A stretch of 64,000 bases of DNA. It comes from Oscillospiraceae bacterium. Lineage in GTDB: Bacteria; Bacillota; Clostridia; Oscillospirales; Ruminococcaceae. The stretch lies in the NCBI GenBank assembly GCA_047602575.1, contig JASGGY010000001.1, positions 142,413-206,412 on the forward strand, written 5' to 3'. Shown one piece after another: positions 11,434 through 32,381 of this stretch (position 1 is the stretch's first letter; each line of letters starts with the position of its first letter). The notes beneath the pieces were generated by a model that searched no databases, was not told the origin of the DNA, and was given only the letters and a program-made list of their open reading frames with translations. The translations under genes and the position numbers were made by a program.

Positions 11434-11466
11434 GAAGTTAGAAGTCAGAGGTTAGAATTGGGGTTA
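11434..11466 (+). repeat. solo heptad array
   Basis: GAAGTTA GAAGTCA GAGGTTA GAATTGG GGTTAC, between two minus-strand genes. Confidence 0.7.
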
Positions 11467-16626: not shown

Positions 16627-17721
16627 ATGGAGCAGATTTCCCAAACGGTTCTGACGGCATACATCGACCGGCTCGAACGTGAGCGTACCCTCACCGCCGA
16701 TGAATTTTCGGCACTGGTGGAATTCCACACCCCCGCTTTGGCGGAATATGTCGCACAAAAAGCCCGCACCCTGCGCGCGCAATACTACGACAACGATGTT
16801 TATATGCGCGGGCTGATTGAGTTCACCAATTACTGTAAAAACGACTGCTTTTATTGCGGCATCCGCCGGAGCAACACCGCTGCCGAGCGGTACAGGCTGA
16901 CAAAGGACGACATCCTCGCCTGTGCGGCGGAAGGCTATCAGCTGGGCTTCCGGACGTTCGTTTTGCAGGGCGGTGAAGATCCCTTTTTCACCGATGAGCG
17001 GCTAACGGAAATTGTTTCGGCGCTCAAAGCGGCTTACCCCGACTGCGCGGTGACGCTTTCCGTGGGGGAACGCAGCTTTGAAAGCTATAAAAAGCTGTAT
17101 GACGCGGGGGCTGACCGGTATTTGCTGCGCCACGAAACCGCCGACGAGGCGCATTACGCAACGCTTCATCCCGCAGAACTGACGCTCGAAAACCGCAAGC
17201 GCTGTTTGTTTGATTTAAAGAAAATCGGCTTTGAAGTCGGAACGGGCTTTATGGTTGGCTCGCCGCACCAGACCCCGCAGACCATCGCCAAGGATCTGCT
17301 GTTTCTGCGGGAGCTTTTGCCCCAGATGGTGGGCATCGGGCCGTTCATCCCGCACGCGGACACGCCGCTGAAAAGCCATCCCGCCGGAAGTGCGCAGCTG
17401 ACGACATTTTTGCTCTCGCTCATCCGGATTATGCTGCCAAACGTCCTGCTCCCCGCCACCACTGCGCTCGGCACAATCGACCCCGCCGGGCGGGAAAAGG
17501 GCATTCTCTCCGGCGCAAATGTCGTGATGCCAAACCTCTCCCCCGTCGCGGTGCGGAAAAAATATATGCTCTACGACAATAAAATCTGCACCGGCGACGA
17601 GGCGGCGGAGTGCCGCTTCTGTATGCAGCGCAGGGTGGAGTCCATCGGCTATAAAATCGCCGTCTGTCGGGGGGATTGGAAGTCAGAAGTCAGAAGCCAG
17701 AAGTCAGAGGTCAGAAGATGA
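16627..17721 (+). CDS. hydE: [FeFe]-hydrogenase H-cluster maturase HydE (radical SAM)
   Basis: 364 aa ORF with the radical-SAM motif NYCKNDCFYCGIRR and BioB-like HydE sequence throughout. The last 13 codons (KSEVRSQKSEVRR) are encoded by a heptad repeat array. Confidence 0.85.
   Translation: MEQISQTVLTAYIDRLERERTLTADEFSALVEFHTPALAEYVAQKARTLRAQYYDNDVYMRGLIEFTNYCKNDCFYCGIRRSNTAAERYRLTKDDILACAAEGYQLGFRTFVLQGGEDPFFTDERLTEIVSALKAAYPDCAVTLSVGERSFESYKKLYDAGADRYLLRHETADEAHYATLHPAELTLENRKRCLFDLKKIGFEVGTGFMVGSPHQTPQTIAKDLLFLRELLPQMVGIGPFIPHADTPLKSHPAGSAQLTTFLLSLIRIMLPNVLLPATTALGTIDPAGREKGILSGANVVMPNLSPVAVRKKYMLYDNKICTGDEAAECRFCMQRRVESIGYKIAVCRGDWKSEVRSQKSEVRR
17679..17717 (+). repeat. heptad array (5.5 units) forming the 3' end of hydE
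   Basis: GAAGTCA GAAGTCA GAAGCCA GAAGTCA GAGGTCA GAAG, translated as KSEVRSQKSEVRR before the hydE TGA. Confidence 0.8.
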
Positions 17722-23019: not shown

Positions 23020-25479
23020 ATGGCAAAGAAGGTTCTCATCGTCGGCGGCGTGGCGGGCGGCGCGACGGCTGCGGCAAGGCTGCGCAGGCTGGATGAAAGC
23101 GCGCAGATCATGATGTTTGAAAAAGGCGGGTACATCTCGTTTGCGAACTGCGGGCTGCCCTATTACATCGGCGGGGCGATCCGCGAGAAGTCCGCACTTA
23201 CACTTCAGACACCGCAGAGCTTCAAGGCGCGGTTCAACGTGGATGTGCGGGTCAACAGCGAGGTTGTTTCCATCGACAAGGAAAGAAAAACCGTTTCGGT
23301 GCGCAATCACGCGACGGGTGAAACCTATGAGGAGCGCTATGACGCACTGGTGCTGTCGCCGGGCGCAGAACCGATCCGCCCGAATCTCGAGGGGATGGAT
23401 TCTGACAAGATTTTCACCCTGCGCAACATCCCCGACACCGTGAAAATCAAGGAATACATCCAGACGCACCGCCCGAAAACCGCGGCGGTCGTTGGCGGCG
23501 GCTTCATCGGCGTGGAAATGGCGGAGAACCTGCACGCAGCGGGACTTTCGGTGTCGCTCATCGAGCTGGCGGATCAGGTCATCGCACCGATTGACTATGA
23601 CATGGCGGGGGATGTCCATCGCCACATCGAGAGCAAGGGCGTTGCGCTTTATCTCGGCAATGCCGTGCGGAGCATTTCCGACAACGGAAAGCAGCTCGAA
23701 ATCGCCCTGGGCAGCGGCATGATTACCGCCGACCTGCTCATCATGGCAATCGGCGTAAAGCCCGACACGAAGCTTGCGAAGGAAGCCGGTCTGGCACTCA
23801 ACGCACGCGGTGCAATCCTCGTGGACGACCATATGCGCACCGGCGCGCCGGATGTCTACGCCGTCGGCGATGCGGTGGAAATCACCGATTTCGTCACCGG
23901 CGAAAAGGGCTTTGTTCCCCTTGCAGGGCCTGCCAACAAGCAGGGCAGGATTGCCGCGGACAATATCTGCGGGTTGGACAGCATTTACACCGGAACGCAG
24001 GGCTCGTCGATTTTAAAGGTGTTTGACTTAACCGTCGCCGCCACCGGCATCAACGAAAAAACCGCCAAGCGGCTTGGGCTGGATTATGAGAAATCCTTCA
24101 CCTATTCCGCCAGCCACGCCAGCTATTATCCCGGTGCGGTGAATATGTCGATCAAGACGATTTTTGAGAAAGCCACAGGCAAGATCCTCGGCGCGCAGGT
24201 GGTGGGCTATGACGGCGCGGATAAGCGCTGCGATGTGCTTGCGACGGCGATCCGCGCCGGCATGACCGCACTGGATCTCGCCCGGCTCGAGCTTTGCTAC
24301 GCGCCGCCCTACGGCTCGGCAAAAGACCCGGTCAACATGGCGGGCTATGTGATAGAAAACATCCTCGCCGGCAGGGAAAAGATTTTCCACTGGCACGATG
24401 TGGAGAAGCTTCCCCGCGACGGCAGCGTAACGCTGCTCGACACCCGCACACCCATAGAATATGCCAACGGACACATCGGCGGCTTTATCAACATCCCGCT
24501 CGACGAGCTGCGCGGGCGGCTGGGCGAGCTTGACAAGAAAAAGCCCGTGTATGTTACCTGCCAGATCGGGCTGCGGGGTTATGTGGCTGCGCGGATTTTG
24601 ATGCAGAACGGCTTTGACGCGTTCAATTTAAGCGGGGGCTACCGGCTTTACAACTCCATTTTCGGTGCGCATCCGCCCAAGCCCGCCGCCGGCATCAACC
24701 CCGAAACCCAGCTTCCCGAGCCGCCGGCGGAGAAGCTCGCAGAAGCTCCCGCAAAGATCGTTTCCGTTGACGCGTGCGGCTTGCAGTGCCCCGGACCGAT
24801 TGTGAAGCTTTCCGCGGCGCTCGAAACAGCGGCGGAGGGCGATGTGGTGGAAATTTCCACGACTGACCCCGCGTTTGCCGGCGACATTGAGGGCTTTTGC
24901 CGGCGCACGGGAAACGAGTTCCTCGGTATCACGAGCGCAAAGGGCGTATCGGCGGCGCGGATCAGAAAAAAGCATGTTGTTTCGGGCGGAACGGCTCAAG
25001 CTGAATCCAAGGACAAAAAGAACATCATTGTGTTTTCCGGTGATCTGGATAAAGCGATTGCGTCGTTCATCATCGCCAACGCCGCCGCCGCGATGGGGCG
25101 CAAGGTGAGTATGTTCTTCACCTTCTGGGGGCTGAACATCCTGCGCCGCGCGGAAAAGGTAAGGGTGCGGAAGAATTTTATCTCGAAAATGTTCGGGATG
25201 ATGATGCCGCGCGGCGCTGGGCGGCTCAAGCTTTCTAAAATGAATATGGGCGGCATGGGAGCGAAGATGATACGCGGCGTGATGAAATCCAAAAATGTCA
25301 GCAGTCTTGAGGAGCTCATTGCCCTTGCGCAGCAAAACGGCGTAGAGCTGATTGCCTGCTCGATGTCGATGGACGTCATGGGCATCACGCAGGAGGAGCT
25401 TCTCCCCGGCGTCAAGCTTGCAGGCGCCGCCGCCATGCTCGCCAACGCCGAAGAATCCGACATGTCATTGTTTATTTAG
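23020..25479 (+). CDS. CoA-disulfide/persulfide reductase-like flavoprotein fused to rhodanese, TusA-like and DsrE-like domains
   Basis: 819 aa ORF with GGVAGGATAAARLRR (FAD), SFANCGLPYY (redox Cys), VTCQIGLRG (rhodanese Cys loop), DACGLQCPGP (TusA CPxP) and a C-terminal DsrE/DrsE-like region (IIVFSGDLDKAIASFIIANAAAAMG..ACSMSMDVMG). Confidence 0.8.
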   Translation: MAKKVLIVGGVAGGATAAARLRRLDESAQIMMFEKGGYISFANCGLPYYIGGAIREKSALTLQTPQSFKARFNVDVRVNSEVVSIDKERKTVSVRNHATGETYEERYDALVLSPGAEPIRPNLEGMDSDKIFTLRNIPDTVKIKEYIQTHRPKTAAVVGGGFIGVEMAENLHAAGLSVSLIELADQVIAPIDYDMAGDVHRHIESKGVALYLGNAVRSISDNGKQLEIALGSGMITADLLIMAIGVKPDTKLAKEAGLALNARGAILVDDHMRTGAPDVYAVGDAVEITDFVTGEKGFVPLAGPANKQGRIAADNICGLDSIYTGTQGSSILKVFDLTVAATGINEKTAKRLGLDYEKSFTYSASHASYYPGAVNMSIKTIFEKATGKILGAQVVGYDGADKRCDVLATAIRAGMTALDLARLELCYAPPYGSAKDPVNMAGYVIENILAGREKIFHWHDVEKLPRDGSVTLLDTRTPIEYANGHIGGFINIPLDELRGRLGELDKKKPVYVTCQIGLRGYVAARILMQNGFDAFNLSGGYRLYNSIFGAHPPKPAAGINPETQLPEPPAEKLAEAPAKIVSVDACGLQCPGPIVKLSAALETAAEGDVVEISTTDPAFAGDIEGFCRRTGNEFLGITSAKGVSAARIRKKHVVSGGTAQAESKDKKNIIVFSGDLDKAIASFIIANAAAAMGRKVSMFFTFWGLNILRRAEKVRVRKNFISKMFGMMMPRGAGRLKLSKMNMGGMGAKMIRGVMKSKNVSSLEELIALAQQNGVELIACSMSMDVMGITQEELLPGVKLAGAAAMLANAEESDMSLFI

Positions 25480-25620
25480 AGGTCAGAAGTCAGAGGCCAG
25501 AGGTCAGAAACGAAAGAGGACTTATGCGCACGCGCATAAGTCCTCTTTATCACAATTTTTAGTATCTCAAGACTGTTCCCTTGTAACTTCTGACTTCTGA
25601 CCTCTGACTTCTGACCTCTA
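25477..25620. repeat. palindromic heptad element filling the whole convergent intergenic region
   Basis: GAGGTCAGAAGTCAGAGGCCAGAGGTCAGAA (25479-25509) and its near-perfect reverse complement (25588-25618, 2 mismatches) flank a near-perfect 36-nt palindrome AAAGAGGACTTATGCGCACGCGCATAAGTCCTCTTT (25513-25548). TAG stops of both flanking genes abut the arms. Confidence 0.8.
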
Positions 25621-27066
25621 ATAGGGCATCGGGAATTCGTTGAGGTAGTCGTCGGTGCTGTCCTGCTCCTGTGTGCCGGAGTTTGAGCCGGAGGATTGCG
25701 GGGAGGCGCTGCTTTCGCCCAGAACAACGTCGAGGTCGATGATTTTATCGTCGCGGTAAACGGATACCTTGATGGTATCGCCCACGCTGAAGGTTTCTTT
25801 GACTTGGTTGAATTCGTCGATGGAATTGATGAGCTTGCCGTTGATGCCGATGACAATGTCGTTGACTTTGATGCCCGCCTTGTCAGCGCCCGAGCCTTCG
25901 GTGACGGACTTGACGATGAAGCCCTGGGGAACATCATAATAGCGGGAGTAAAGCTCGCTGACGTCAACGCCTGCCATGCCGGTGGTGGGTCTGCCCTTGA
26001 CATAGCCGTATTTGATGAGGTCGTCCACAATCGGAATCGCCGCGTCAATCGGGATCGCAAAGCCCAGTCCCTCGCCGTAGGTGGAGGAAACCTTTGCCGA
26101 CGTGATGCCGACCACCTGTCCGTAAGCATTGATCAGCGGACCGCCTGAGTTGCCGGAGTTGATGGGCGCGTCGGTCTGAATGAGGTTCATTTCTCTGTCT
26201 TCAATGGTCAGCTTCCGGTCAAGGGCGGAGATGATGCCGCTGGTGACAGAGCCCTTCAGCTCAAAGCCCAGCGGGTTTCCGATGACGATGGAAAGTTCGC
26301 CGACGACCAGATCAGCGGATTTGCCGAATTCCGCGGCGGTCAGACCGGTTTTCTCGATCTTGATCACGGCGATGTCGGTCTGTGTGTCGCTGCCGATGAG
26401 CGTTCCGGTGAACTCAAGAGATGATTCCCCGGAGTCGTCAGAATCCGCCTCGGCTTCCGCATAGGTGGAAGGAAGCACAACCATAATCGACTGCGCGCCC
26501 TCAACAACGTGTGCGTTGGTGATGATATAGCCGTCCGCGCTCATGATGATGCCCGTTCCCGTCGCCGTGCCGTTGGAAAGCGTGCAGGAAATGCCGACCA
26601 CGGAGGGCGAAACCTTGGTGGCGATGTCGGGAATGCTCATCGCATCCGACGGAGCGGCAAGCTGTTCAAGCGTGGGATAGGTGCGGGTGGAGGTTTCCAC
26701 CGCGGTGTCGCTTACGCTGTTGACGGAGGACTTGCTTGAGGAATCGGTATCGCTGTCCGGCTTGCCGTCTAAGCCGCCGGTGAAAAGCTGGTAGCCGACA
26801 ATCGATGTTGTACCGATCGCGCCCGCGCAAAGCACGGCAACTGCGGCGGTGAAAATTTTCTTGCCGGTTGATTTTTTCTTGCGCGGATCGTTGGGTTCCT
26901 GACCGGGCGGGTAATAGTTGACCTCGCCGTAGCGCGCGTCCGTGCGGCGCGGGTCGGCTCCGTCAAAGCGATAACGGTAAAAGCCGTCGGGCGGGGTCGC
27001 CGGGGTGTTGTCTGTCAAGGGCGTTTCGGCTGACGGATTTATGTTGTTTTCATCAAAGCCATTCAT
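25618..27066 (-). CDS. htrA: HtrA/DegP-family serine protease with PDZ domain
   Basis: 482 aa ORF with an N-terminal TM segment, triad contexts ITNAHVV, TDIAVIKIE and GNSGGPLINA, and a PDZ-like C-terminus. Confidence 0.8.
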   Translation of the reverse strand: MNGFDENNINPSAETPLTDNTPATPPDGFYRYRFDGADPRRTDARYGEVNYYPPGQEPNDPRKKKSTGKKIFTAAVAVLCAGAIGTTSIVGYQLFTGGLDGKPDSDTDSSSKSSVNSVSDTAVETSTRTYPTLEQLAAPSDAMSIPDIATKVSPSVVGISCTLSNGTATGTGIIMSADGYIITNAHVVEGAQSIMVVLPSTYAEAEADSDDSGESSLEFTGTLIGSDTQTDIAVIKIEKTGLTAAEFGKSADLVVGELSIVIGNPLGFELKGSVTSGIISALDRKLTIEDREMNLIQTDAPINSGNSGGPLINAYGQVVGITSAKVSSTYGEGLGFAIPIDAAIPIVDDLIKYGYVKGRPTTGMAGVDVSELYSRYYDVPQGFIVKSVTEGSGADKAGIKVNDIVIGINGKLINSIDEFNQVKETFSVGDTIKVSVYRDDKIIDLDVVLGESSASPQSSGSNSGTQEQDSTDDYLNEFPMPY

Positions 27067-27211
27067 GTAAAAAAAACCTCCTTTGAAAGTTTCGGTTCGT
27101 TTTCTTTGTTCTTTTGTGTGGTTTTGCTATACTCTCATTATACCCCCGAATGTGATAATCTTATGATAACCGCTGGAATTTTTCATGTGTTTGCCGTCAA
27201 AATGCTTTCAC

Positions 27212-27243
27212 GAAAAAAAGCAGAACCGCTTCGGCTCTGCTTT
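27212..27243 (-). terminator. intrinsic terminator of pyrE
   Basis: Minus strand reads GCAGAGCCGAAGCGGTTCTGC followed by TTTTTTT. Confidence 0.7.
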
Positions 27244-27266
27244 GTTGTGCGGGGTAACGCTGTGGG

Positions 27267-27920
27267 CTATTTCACGCCGTATTGTGCGCGGTAAGCGCGC
27301 ATTGCGTCGAGGTATTCTTTACCGGGGATCACGCCGGATTCAATCGCGGCGATGATGTCCTCCATGGTGACGATGGCATAAACGCGGATGCCGAACTCGG
27401 TGAACGCGTCCTGCACCGCGGAGGTTTCGCCCAGACCCTTTTCCATGCGATCCACGGTGATGAGCATCGCGCGCACTTCCACATCCGCAGCGGCTTTGAG
27501 CTTCGGGATGCTCTCGCGCAGGGCTTTTCCGGAGGTCATCACGTCCTCGATGATCGCAACGCGCTCGCCGTCAGTGAGCTGTTTTCCGACCAGCACGCCG
27601 CCCTCGCCGTGATCCTTGGCTTCCTTGCGGTCAAAGCAGTAGTTGACGGTCACGCCGAATTTGTTAAACAGCCCGACTGCCGCCGATGCCGCCAGCGGGA
27701 TGCCTTTATAGGCAGGACCGAACAGCGTGTCAACCTCGATCTTGTTTTCCGTCATACATTCCGCGTAATATTCGCCGAGCTTTGCAAGCTGCGCGCCGGT
27801 GCAGTATTCGCCGGTGTTGATGAAATAAGGCGCAATGCGTCCGCTTTTGAGGGTAAACGTGCCGAATTTCAGCACGTGGCTTTCGTACATGAATTGAATG
27901 AAGCTTTCTTTGTAGGTCAT
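27267..27920 (-). CDS. pyrE: orotate phosphoribosyltransferase
   Basis: 217 aa ORF with VLKFGTFTLKSGRIAPYFIN and the PRPP loop VAIIEDVMTSGKA. Confidence 0.85.
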   Translation of the reverse strand: MTYKESFIQFMYESHVLKFGTFTLKSGRIAPYFINTGEYCTGAQLAKLGEYYAECMTENKIEVDTLFGPAYKGIPLAASAAVGLFNKFGVTVNYCFDRKEAKDHGEGGVLVGKQLTDGERVAIIEDVMTSGKALRESIPKLKAAADVEVRAMLITVDRMEKGLGETSAVQDAFTEFGIRVYAIVTMEDIIAAIESGVIPGKEYLDAMRAYRAQYGVK

Positions 27921-30857: not shown

Positions 30858-32168
30858 TTGATTGCTCAGCTCAACGCGCGCTTATCGGAAGCCGTCTGGG
30901 GCGCGCCCGTCATTATACTTATGCTCGTGACCGGCGTTTTGTTCACCGTCGGCACAGGTTTTTTTCAGGTGCGCTGCGCGGGCAGAATCCTGCGCGAAAC
31001 GCTCGGCACGCTGTTTCATAAAACCCCCGGCGCGGACGCATCAAGCCTTTCGCAGCTCCAGACGGTGTCCGCGTCGTTGGGCGCAACCATCGGCACGGGT
31101 AGTGTGGTCGGCGTGGCGGCGGCGATTTCCGTCGGTGGGGCGGGTGCGGTGTTCTGGATGTGGGTGTCGGCATTTTTCGGGATGATGACGGCTTATGCGG
31201 AAAATGTCCTCGCGATTTTGTTCCGCGAAAAGAAAAACGGCGTCACTGTCTGCACCGCCGCGGATTATATGGAAAAAGGACTCGGCGCGCGGTGGATGGG
31301 AGTGATATTCTCGGTTTTCTGCGTGTTGGCTTCCTTCGGCATGGGCAACATGGCGCAGGGGAACGCCATCGCCGGTGCTTGCGCGGAAAGCTTCGGCGTT
31401 CCGGCGGCGGTGTGCGGGGCTGCGCTTACAGCACTGGTCTGTGCGGTGATGCTTGGCGGCAGAAAGCGCCTCGGGCGCGTGGCGGAGCGGCTTGTGCCGT
31501 TTATGGCGGTCTTTTTCATCGGCGGGGCGCTGGTGATTATCCTGCTCAATTGCAGCGAGCTCGGCGGTGCGTTCGGCGAAATTTTTGCCGGCGCGTTCGG
31601 CGTAAAGTCCGCGGCGGGTGGCGCGGTGGGGGTAACACTCCAGATGGCGGTTTCCACCGGCTTCCGGCGCGGAAGCTTTTCTCACGAAGCCGGACTCGGC
31701 TCAACCGTCGCACTCCATGCCGCCACAGAGGTCAGAGATCCTGTCAAGCAGGGAATGTGGGGCATTTTTGAGGTGTTCGTTGACACCATGGTCATCTGCA
31801 CGCTCACCGCGCTCGTCATCCTCGTCACCGGTCAGACCGGCGGCGGAAGTGACTGCATCGTGCGCGCGTTCTCGACGGGTTTCGGAACGCTGGGCGGCAC
31901 ATTCGTGTCCGTGTCCATCGCGCTGTTCGCCCTTGCGACCATCCTAAGCTGGTCATATATCGGCATCCAGTCATGGAACTGGCTGTTCCCGCGCTCAAAG
32001 GGCAGGCTCTATAAAAGCATCTTCTGTGTCGCGGCTTTTTTCGGCTGCACAATGAACCTGAAGCTCGTGTGGGACATCTCCGACACCTTTAACGGACTCA
32101 TGGCAATTCCAAACCTAACCGCATTACTGCTACTAAGCAGAAAAGTTTTTAAGGCGTCTAGAAGTTAG
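30858..32168 (+). CDS. sodium:alanine (AGCS family) symporter
   Basis: 436 aa ORF with TTG start. AGCS signature region LQTVSASLGATIGTGSVVGVAAAISVGGAGAVFWMWVSAFFGMMTAYAE. The stop codon lies inside a heptad repeat. Confidence 0.8.
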   Translation: MIAQLNARLSEAVWGAPVIILMLVTGVLFTVGTGFFQVRCAGRILRETLGTLFHKTPGADASSLSQLQTVSASLGATIGTGSVVGVAAAISVGGAGAVFWMWVSAFFGMMTAYAENVLAILFREKKNGVTVCTAADYMEKGLGARWMGVIFSVFCVLASFGMGNMAQGNAIAGACAESFGVPAAVCGAALTALVCAVMLGGRKRLGRVAERLVPFMAVFFIGGALVIILLNCSELGGAFGEIFAGAFGVKSAAGGAVGVTLQMAVSTGFRRGSFSHEAGLGSTVALHAATEVRDPVKQGMWGIFEVFVDTMVICTLTALVILVTGQTGGGSDCIVRAFSTGFGTLGGTFVSVSIALFALATILSWSYIGIQSWNWLFPRSKGRLYKSIFCVAAFFGCTMNLKLVWDISDTFNGLMAIPNLTALLLLSRKVFKASRS

Positions 32169-32375
32169 AAGTCAGAAGTCAGAGGTCAGAAGTCAGAAGC
32201 TAGGAGGGTAATCTGTACAGATTACCTCACATCGCAAACCAAATCCCATTGAGCATCACAAAGAGCAGGCGCGCCCGCACACTGATCGAAAAGCAGGCAC
32301 CCCAACGCGCGCAAAGGGTTTCCAAAGGGGGCATGCCCCCTTTAGCGGGGGTCTGGGGGCGAGGAGCCCCCAGTG
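32161..32375 (-). repeat. composite repeat unit: six heptads + variable hairpin + boxes + hairpin stack (arm A4)
   Basis: GAAGTTA GAAGTCA GAAGTCA GAGGTCA GAAGTCA GAAGCTA (32161-32202), palindrome GGTAATCTGTACAGATTACC (32207-32226), TCGCAAACCAAA, CAACGCGCGCAA, GGGTTTCC (32316), CCAAAGGGGGCATGCCCCCTTTAG, and CTGGGGGCGAGGAGCCCCCAG. Confidence 0.8.
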
Positions 32376-32381
32376 AAGTCC

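Follow-up and report, generated by a model that had tools for sequence, protein, structure and literature searches.

The intervening sequences (IVS) of rRNA and the S23p genes that they carry were already described in the 1990s, and no origin or function is known for them. S23p is a pentameric four-helix-bundle protein related to the Avd protein of diversity-generating retroelements (DGR). The locus described here is a 138-nt region between two convergent protein-coding genes in a 64,000-nt stretch of DNA (the window) from an Oscillospiraceae/Ruminococcus-like Firmicute, whose genome assembly comprises 2.72 Mb in 8 contigs with ~52% GC and is 90.6% complete. The region is bordered by two inverted arrays of the heptad unit GTYAGAR. 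On balance, it is probably a member of a family of heptad-armed inverted repeats which lies outside of rRNA and lacks an open reading frame (ORF), the full-length form of the family being the S23p-encoding IVS that both of the organism's 23S rRNA genes contain. All coordinates are window positions unless a contig label (C1-C8) is given.

The closest described systems are the S23p IVS in helix 45 of 23S rRNA, which occur in Coxiella burnetii, Leptospira and Xanthomonas (Warrier et al. 2016, PMC4990558). In Coxiella, the IVS measures 428 nt and is described as "selfish"; it has an S23p ORF, a 28-bp terminal-repeat stem that is cut by RNase III and tandem GACAGAT heptamers, the number of which differs between strains (PMC4990558). 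The 138-nt locus resembles these elements in its terminal inverted-repeat stem (~28-34 bp) and resembles the Coxiella IVS in that its arms consist of heptamers rich in purines, with GTYAGAR where Coxiella has GACAGAT. Unlike an IVS, the locus lies between two protein genes, has no S23p ORF, has an interior made of a 36-nt hairpin and a 39-nt spacer, and has termini that double as the stop codons of both neighbours. Cutting by RNase III is reported for the Coxiella stem, and the predicted stem of the locus is a putative substrate.

Geobacter metallireducens has 8 inverted pairs of five MTYCTGA heptads, which are annotated as "class 3 putative global regulator binding sites" (Aklujkar et al. 2009, PMC2700814). 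These sites share with the locus a nearly identical heptad (TCAGAAG reads CTTCTGA on the other strand), arms of about five units and pairing on opposite strands in intergenic DNA. However, the CCTCTGA units of the locus family do not fit MTYCTGA. The Geobacter sites are also from another phylum, and are read there as DNA sites with no link to IVS, S23p or stop codons.

Heptameric repeats are a known and unexplained class (Mrazek et al. 2007, as cited in PMC4679880), with catalogues of such arrays in bacteria since at least 2007. Examples include GGGAATC/GGGGAYT in Xanthomonas and Nostoc (PMC4692102), TAACTGA in Beggiatoaceae (MacGregor 2015, PMC4679880) and the short tandemly repeated repetitive (STRR) sequences of cyanobacteria. 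In Xanthomonas, the GGGAATC repeats occur preferentially within 50 bp downstream of stop codons and in sense orientation (Rehm et al. 2015, PMC4692102). The GTYAGAR arrays are likewise dispersed and lineage-specific, have 3-7 units and are biased toward non-coding DNA. As points of difference, their unit is not G-quadruplex (G4)-forming and they are tied to an IVS/S23p cassette. Their positional bias is also sharper, with base-exact abutment to genes, a TAG in the first unit and arrays directly after tRNA CCA ends. The repetitive extragenic palindromic (REP) sequences, the bacterial interspersed mosaic elements (BIME) and the REP doublets forming hairpins (REPIN) of E. coli and Pseudomonas are similar in being hairpin-forming inverted doublets in 3' untranslated regions (UTRs), near stop codons and between convergent or tandem genes. 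The locus differs from them in that no REP-associated tyrosine transposase (RAYT) gene was found in this genome, the arms are tandem heptads instead of a single palindrome, and the interior is not conserved.

No description of ORF-less, IVS-type pairs at mRNA stop codons was found in the open-access literature, and as a literal sequence in papers the heptad dimers were found only in eukaryotic nuclear-receptor direct repeat 1 (DR1) sites and in primers. What this Firmicute adds is a single genome in which one heptad unit occurs in three forms: the S23p IVS lies in both 23S genes, the ORF-less inverted pairs, including the 138-nt locus, lie elsewhere, and ~55 solo arms lie with base precision at stop codons and tRNA ends. 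Since the three forms occur side by side and use one unit, the relation between heptad arrays and IVS is directly testable. There is also a consequence for annotation, as such elements can supply an ordinary gene with its stop codon and its entire 3' UTR.

Structure of the locus

The gap between the facing stop codons of a flavoprotein gene and an htrA-like gene is exactly 138 nt (25480-25617). The original prediction stated that this gap is fully accounted for by a heptad array, a palindrome, a spacer and the reverse complement of the array, and all of the coordinates are as it gave them (Table 1). The outer arms recovered in the inverted-repeat search are 34 nt each and 94% complementary, which corresponds to the 2 mismatches that had been counted. 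Tandem Repeats Finder (TRF) placed period-7 arrays of 4.4-4.9 copies at 25478-25508 and 25586-25619, and the heptad dimer pattern has 16 matches across the window compared to 0.03 expected. The 36-nt palindrome (25513-25548) is in fact perfect, with arms of 17 nt (25513-25529 and 25532-25548) that are 100% complementary and have 2 nt between them; this is the GC-rich inner hairpin of 16-17 bp. The spacer of ~39 nt was said to have ATCACAA right after the palindrome, and it does open with this motif (25549-25587). The common junction proposed for the two gene ends was also found, as both read (T/A)TTAG-AGGTCAGAAGTCAGAGG. The termini of the arms are TTTAGAGG...CCTCTAA. There is no ORF within the 78-nt interior.

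A long stem enclosing a second hairpin had been proposed, and folding of both strands agrees with it. In each strand the outer stem surrounds the inner hairpin in the minimum free energy (MFE) and centroid structures alike. The MFE values of the two strands are -88.7 and -88.4 kcal/mol, compared to a mean of ~-37 for shuffled sequences (z = -12.9 and -12.4), and 0/200 shuffled sequences fold as well as the locus. A search of Rfam (gathering and E-value thresholds) returned no known RNA family, the sole match being a chance one to MIR529 at 18 bits. No rRNA was found within the window; the locus sits between protein-coding ORFs and not in helix 25 or helix 45 of 23S rRNA.

In the 70 nt 3' of the array, the inner hairpin is the only long helix (-26.1 kcal/mol). 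Behind its GC core, the inner stem runs into UUUCGUUUCU (7 U in 10) in the htrA-sense direction and into UUUAUCACAAUUUUU (4 U in 10, then UUUUU) in the flavoprotein-sense direction. The ends of the core are A/U-paired, so in either transcript the inner stem leads into UUU. The original prediction held that there is no U-tract. This needs a qualification, as the tail is interrupted and not absent. A consensus terminator scan makes no terminator call. With this anatomy, the bidirectional device for RNA stability or termination that the original prediction offered as its second reading is plausible: the inner hairpin would probably terminate transcription in both directions and would protect the 3' ends as a stem.

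Table 1. Positions of the parts of the 138-nt locus and of related heptad features in the genome
Feature	Position	Strand	Remarks
TAG stop, flavoprotein gene	25477-25479	+	inside first unit of left arm
Left arm TTAGAGGTCAGAAGTCAGAGGCCAGAGGTCAGAA, ~5 GTYAGAR heptads	25476-25509	+	flavoprotein-sense; inverted-repeat search, TRF, pattern count
Linker ACG, 3 nt, left arm to inner hairpin	25510-25512		sequence reading
Inner perfect palindrome AAAGAGGACTTATGCGC-AC-GCGCATAAGTCCTCTTT	25513-25548		GC-rich core, A/U-paired ends; candidate bidirectional terminator
AT-rich spacer, 39 nt, starts ATCACAATTTTT	25549-25587		locus-specific; without promoter-like site
Right arm, minus-strand reading TTAGAGGTCAGAAGTCAGAGGTCAGAAGTCAGAA, ~5 heptads	25588-25621	-	htrA-sense; inverted-repeat search, TRF, pattern count
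TAG stop (CTA on plus strand), htrA-like gene	25618-25620	-	inside first unit of right arm
23S IVS, ~532 nt	C3:220275-220804 and C3:903574-904103		intact 118-aa S23p ORF, 34-nt heptad arms
Array-trailed tRNA Arg-CCT	C1:3379
Array-trailed tRNA Leu-TAG	C3:392508
Array-trailed tRNA Arg-CCG	C3:852512
Array-trailed tRNA Leu-CAG	C3:925035
Array-trailed tRNA Leu-TAA	C4:80464
Solo array	17679-17717	+	hydE frame passes through; GAGG 7 nt before next ATG
Solo array abutting TAG stop	32160-32199	+	then GGAGG hairpin; GGGTTTCCAAAGGG repeat (187 copies) at ~117 nt
Short solo array, 3 units	11437-11457	+

Heptad-armed pairs elsewhere in the genome

The PF05635 (S23p) profile identifies two identical loci in the genome (E = 3e-36), both inside large subunit (LSU) rRNA (2441 bits), and these two rRNA copies are its only matches in the genome. 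The order of the sequence is ...ACACCGAAGCTTGGGC|TTTTAGAGGTTAGAAATCAGAAGTCAGAAGTCAGAG - 118-aa S23p ORF - GTTCTGACATCTGACATCTGATTTCTGACCTCTAAA|GGGGTAGGAGAGCG.... The arms of this IVS (TTTAGAGGTTAGAAATCAGAAGTCAGAAGTCAGAG ... TTCTGACCTCTAAA) are 34 nt long and 91% complementary. They consist of GTYAGAR heptads and have the termini TTTAGAGG...CCTCTAAA, as at the 138-nt locus. The site is ~1.2 kb from the 5' end of the 23S, which in the E. coli sequence is helix 45, the classical IVS site. The 23S of two relatives has a helix tip of 14-16 nt exactly where this genome has ~532 nt. As the IVS with its S23p ORF and heptad arms is present in both 23S genes, the organism probably has fragmented 23S rRNA. 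The genome contains a gene for RNase III (E = 1e-42).

Two other ORF-less inverted pairs were found, at C2 37951-38079 and C8 97382-97492. Both have the layout of the 138-nt locus, which is an array, a GC hairpin, an AT-rich spacer and the reverse-complement array. One further array has a 12-nt reverse-complement segment and a T-run behind it. Throughout the genome, the reverse-complement copies are always downstream of an array and never upstream. The pair at the 138-nt locus is therefore not singular, as the genome search found inverted pairs on C2, on C8 and in the two 23S IVS.

Solo arrays at gene and tRNA ends

A genome-wide pattern search found 53-62 arrays with at least 3 GTYAGAR units. 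At the ends of ORFs of at least 150 codons, 20 arrays are in sense orientation and 1 is antisense, and 26 arrays begin no more than 7 nt from where a gene or tRNA of the same orientation ends. Most arrays open with the unit (T)TTAGAR, so TAG stops are over-represented in array-linked ORFs (20/30, compared to 16% of long ORFs genome-wide). Arrays also occur 3' of 5/47 tRNAs, in four cases directly after the CCA and in the fifth 14 nt beyond it. At one of these (C3:852512/853830), the 3' end of the tRNA and the array are tandemly duplicated, which is similar to an integration site. Folding of the 70 nt 3' of the arrays is not stronger than that of the 70 nt behind ordinary stop codons (P = 0.91). 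A GGAGG-like motif is enriched 3' of the arrays (20/62, compared to 8/400 controls).

Since the reverse-complement arm has more C than G, pyrimidine-C (YC) dimers every 7 nt and stops in all three frames, a Rho loading site was also considered. This candidate was rejected, as the Rho RNA-binding domain PF07497 was not detected in the genome (90.6% complete; the control search was positive in 9/14 control genomes).

Distribution in relatives and environmental sequences

The heptad family was not found in any of the 30 relatives searched, including the same-genus genome (75% completeness), apart from a single array with the GTYAGAR unit in one relative of the same order. S23p is present in 10/30 relatives. 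The same-genus genome gave no S23p match and also lacks the arrays. Two of the S23p-bearing relatives have inverted heptads on both sides of the S23p ORF, with AATTCGG and GTGGTCA as the units. The S23p genes of six related Clostridia (G005, G020, G021, G022, G025 and G029) are without heptad arms and have 3-5 short GC hairpins upstream. Each of these hairpins is then followed by a lineage-specific motif of 8-9 nt, for example AATATAACT, CATCATT or GATTACAT, which makes the series a different iterated architecture beside the same S23p family.

Short iterated motifs regularly precede or bracket the S23p genes of relatives, which would suit a reading of the paired arrays as iterated DNA sites, bound by a nucleoid-associated or regulatory protein or by S23p. 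This would follow the annotation of the eight inverted pairs with a near-identical unit in G. metallireducens, although that assignment is itself a prediction. The arrays are strictly in sense and meet stop codons and tRNA CCA ends with base precision, which speaks for the transcript and not for duplex DNA as the level at which they act. In addition, the arms in 23S rRNA are certainly transcribed and are sited where RNase III acts in other species. It is therefore very unlikely that the pairs are DNA sites.

A search with the heptad pattern alone, with no protein reference, returned at least 120 metagenome and at least 120 "viral" stretches, and 240 loci were analysed. Among the 240 environmental loci listed, 43 adjacent inverted pairs have the purine arm first and 1 has the opposite polarity. 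The loops of the environmental pairs range from 2 to 128 nt, some being as short as 2-7 nt. S23p homologues (39-53% identity) are carried by 3/240 loci, where they are bracketed within 3-40 nt by inverted GTYAGAR-type arms, and two of these three are at the same 23S site (helix 45). A crude ORF test found no array orientation bias in the environmental contigs (18 vs 15; 28 vs 26), so the sense rule at gene ends is established for this genome only.

A wider interpretation is that heptad-armed S23p cassettes are a widespread class of mobile hairpins, for which the 23S IVS is merely the best-known landing site. The ORF-less copies at mRNA 3' ends and in tRNA trailers would donate stop codons and stems that RNase III can cleave, while S23p would recognise the arms and promote spread or maintenance of the elements. 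We offer this tentatively and consider it rather unlikely.

Two environmental loci differ from the others in what they contain. In a soil metagenome contig (L099 1-190), a tRNA-Thr gene occupies a 128-nt loop between inverted heptad arms; a tRNA can evidently be enclosed by such arms, just as S23p genes and plain hairpins can. In a metagenome rRNA operon whose S23p IVS has heptad arms (L186 574-1066), several arrays of the same heptad lie at and just past the 3' end of the 16S, and each is then followed by a hairpin and CCGACAT repeats.

Neighbouring genes and the possible unity of the pair

The flavoprotein ORF (23020-25479, plus strand, 819 aa; gene calls are ORF-based) is similar to CoA-disulfide reductase and has rhodanese and DsrE/TusA-like C-terminal parts. 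Its closest match is from "Ruminococcus sp. UBA1366" (80%). The same-genus orthologue has the same C-terminal residues and a native TAG (...TTTATTTAG|gaaacg). The htrA-like gene encodes an S1C protease of 482 aa (25618-27066, minus strand), and the same-genus orthologue ends ...CCGTATTAA (TATTAA; stop TAA). In the same-genus genome, the flavoprotein gene, a pyrE-like gene and htrA are in this order, all on one strand. In the window (25477-27920) the pyrE-htrA block is inverted compared to that genome, and htrA meets the flavoprotein gene exactly at the heptad pair. The junction is therefore a synteny breakpoint. No close strain for comparison was found among 5.8 billion proteins, the best htrA homologue being 64% identical. 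A metagenome-assembled genome (MAG) of Fibrobacter, which is from an unrelated phylum, has five GTCACAA heptads ~90 nt 3' of the orthologous flavoprotein gene (L073 3251-3286).

Several results weigh against the locus being one unit of the IVS-type family. Most of the arrays in the genome are solo, and the inner 78 nt has no further copy anywhere in the genome, so the whole unit is not repeated. The two arms are identical at 26/28 positions, a level reached by 18% of all array pairs; they are thus no more alike than random family members. Selection for pairing between the two arms was rejected for the same reason. The inner hairpin received no terminator call in the consensus scan, no mobility gene such as a transposase was identified for the element, and S23p has no known activity and is reported to be probably unexpressed in Coxiella (PMC4990558). 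No strain with an empty site is present in the databases, where the nearest htrA homologue is the 64% identical one, so the insertion is a putative one.

The main rival is that the locus consists of two independent solo arrays around a native terminator. Each gene would have gained its own 3' array, or grown it by slippage, with a native terminator shared between them, and the outer stem would be accidental. The unique interior and the random-like arms agree with such a coincidence, as does the predominance of solo arrays at gene ends (20 sense vs 1 antisense and 5/47 tRNAs, with ~50 other genes and tRNAs so equipped), many of which lie between a stop codon and a classical terminator. The synteny breakpoint also fits, since the two gene ends were joined secondarily. 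However, convergent intergenic regions with both arms number 2-3 compared to 0.15 expected (P ~0.01 or less, on a crude ORF map). Full inverted pairs also surround S23p in the same genome, and pairs are common elsewhere with one polarity (43 to 1) and loops down to 2-7 nt. Two coincident arrays are therefore somewhat improbable, and membership in the heptad-armed family is the reading carried forward here.

Proposed mechanism and mobility

If the locus is an ORF-less family member, the inner hairpin with its A-run and U-run ends would halt most transcription from either side. Each mRNA would then end with the stop codon, its own purine-rich arm and a stem-loop. A transcript that passes the hairpin would gain the second arm and could form a 34-bp duplex, the kind that is cut by RNase III in IVS stems. 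Only read-through RNA would hold both arms, and a cut by RNase III would sever it before it becomes antisense to the neighbour gene. By analogy with the IVS, the outer stem may be an RNase III substrate upon read-through.

The element may have spread within the lineage and settled at those stop codons and RNA 3' ends with which its TAG-bearing terminus can coincide, in which case the solo arrays would be half-elements or decayed copies. It is probably a selfish or neutral passenger rather than an adaptation, because it is lineage-specific and is lodged where the TAG-bearing end can coincide with a stop codon.

A different route of spread would be that of a REPIN/RAYT system or of a classical miniature inverted-repeat transposable element (MITE) with terminal inverted repeats (TIRs). 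Such an element would be non-autonomous, would target TA or TTAG, and would depend for its movement on a Y1 (RAYT/IS200) or DDE transposase acting in trans. A hairpin-forming doublet is similar to a REPIN, and a position just after stop codons is similar to REP/BIME. The flanks of the pair (TA...TA or TTAG...CTAA) could also be taken for a target site. However, TTAG...CTAA is inverted and part of the terminus, and the palindromic TA is indistinguishable from the TIR, so no target duplication can be demonstrated. The Y1 transposase domain PF01797 was not found in the genome (90.6% complete; the control search was positive in 6/14 control genomes), and the interior is not conserved among copies. 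Mobilisation of this type is thus extremely improbable. A REP/RAYT element was rejected as no Y1 transposase was found in the genome, and a multi-copy MITE was rejected as the 78-nt interior matches only itself.

The original prediction had described the locus as a TIR-bounded member of the heptad family. The architecture supports this, with further inverted heptad pairs on C2, on C8 and in the two 23S IVS, the arms and termini of the IVS matching those of the locus. The link to the 23S IVS, which lies outside the window, is not part of that prediction. The description fails where it implies a multi-copy MITE, given the unique interior, the failure to find a Y1 transposase and the random-like arms.

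Other arrays in the window and an associated repeat

At 17679-17721, the hydE gene reads through an array of five units and its stop codon TGA overlaps the ATG of the next gene. With the GAGG upstream of that ATG, the C-terminal codons, the stop context and a Shine-Dalgarno-like site all come from one array.

A second repeat family is much larger and consists of the core GGGTTTCCAAAGGGGGCATGCCCCCTTTGG with further GC hairpins behind it. It has ~187 sites genome-wide, including 32311-32380 in the window, and no match in Rfam. A repeat with this core trails 15/62 heptad arrays on the same strand, mostly at ~117 nt.

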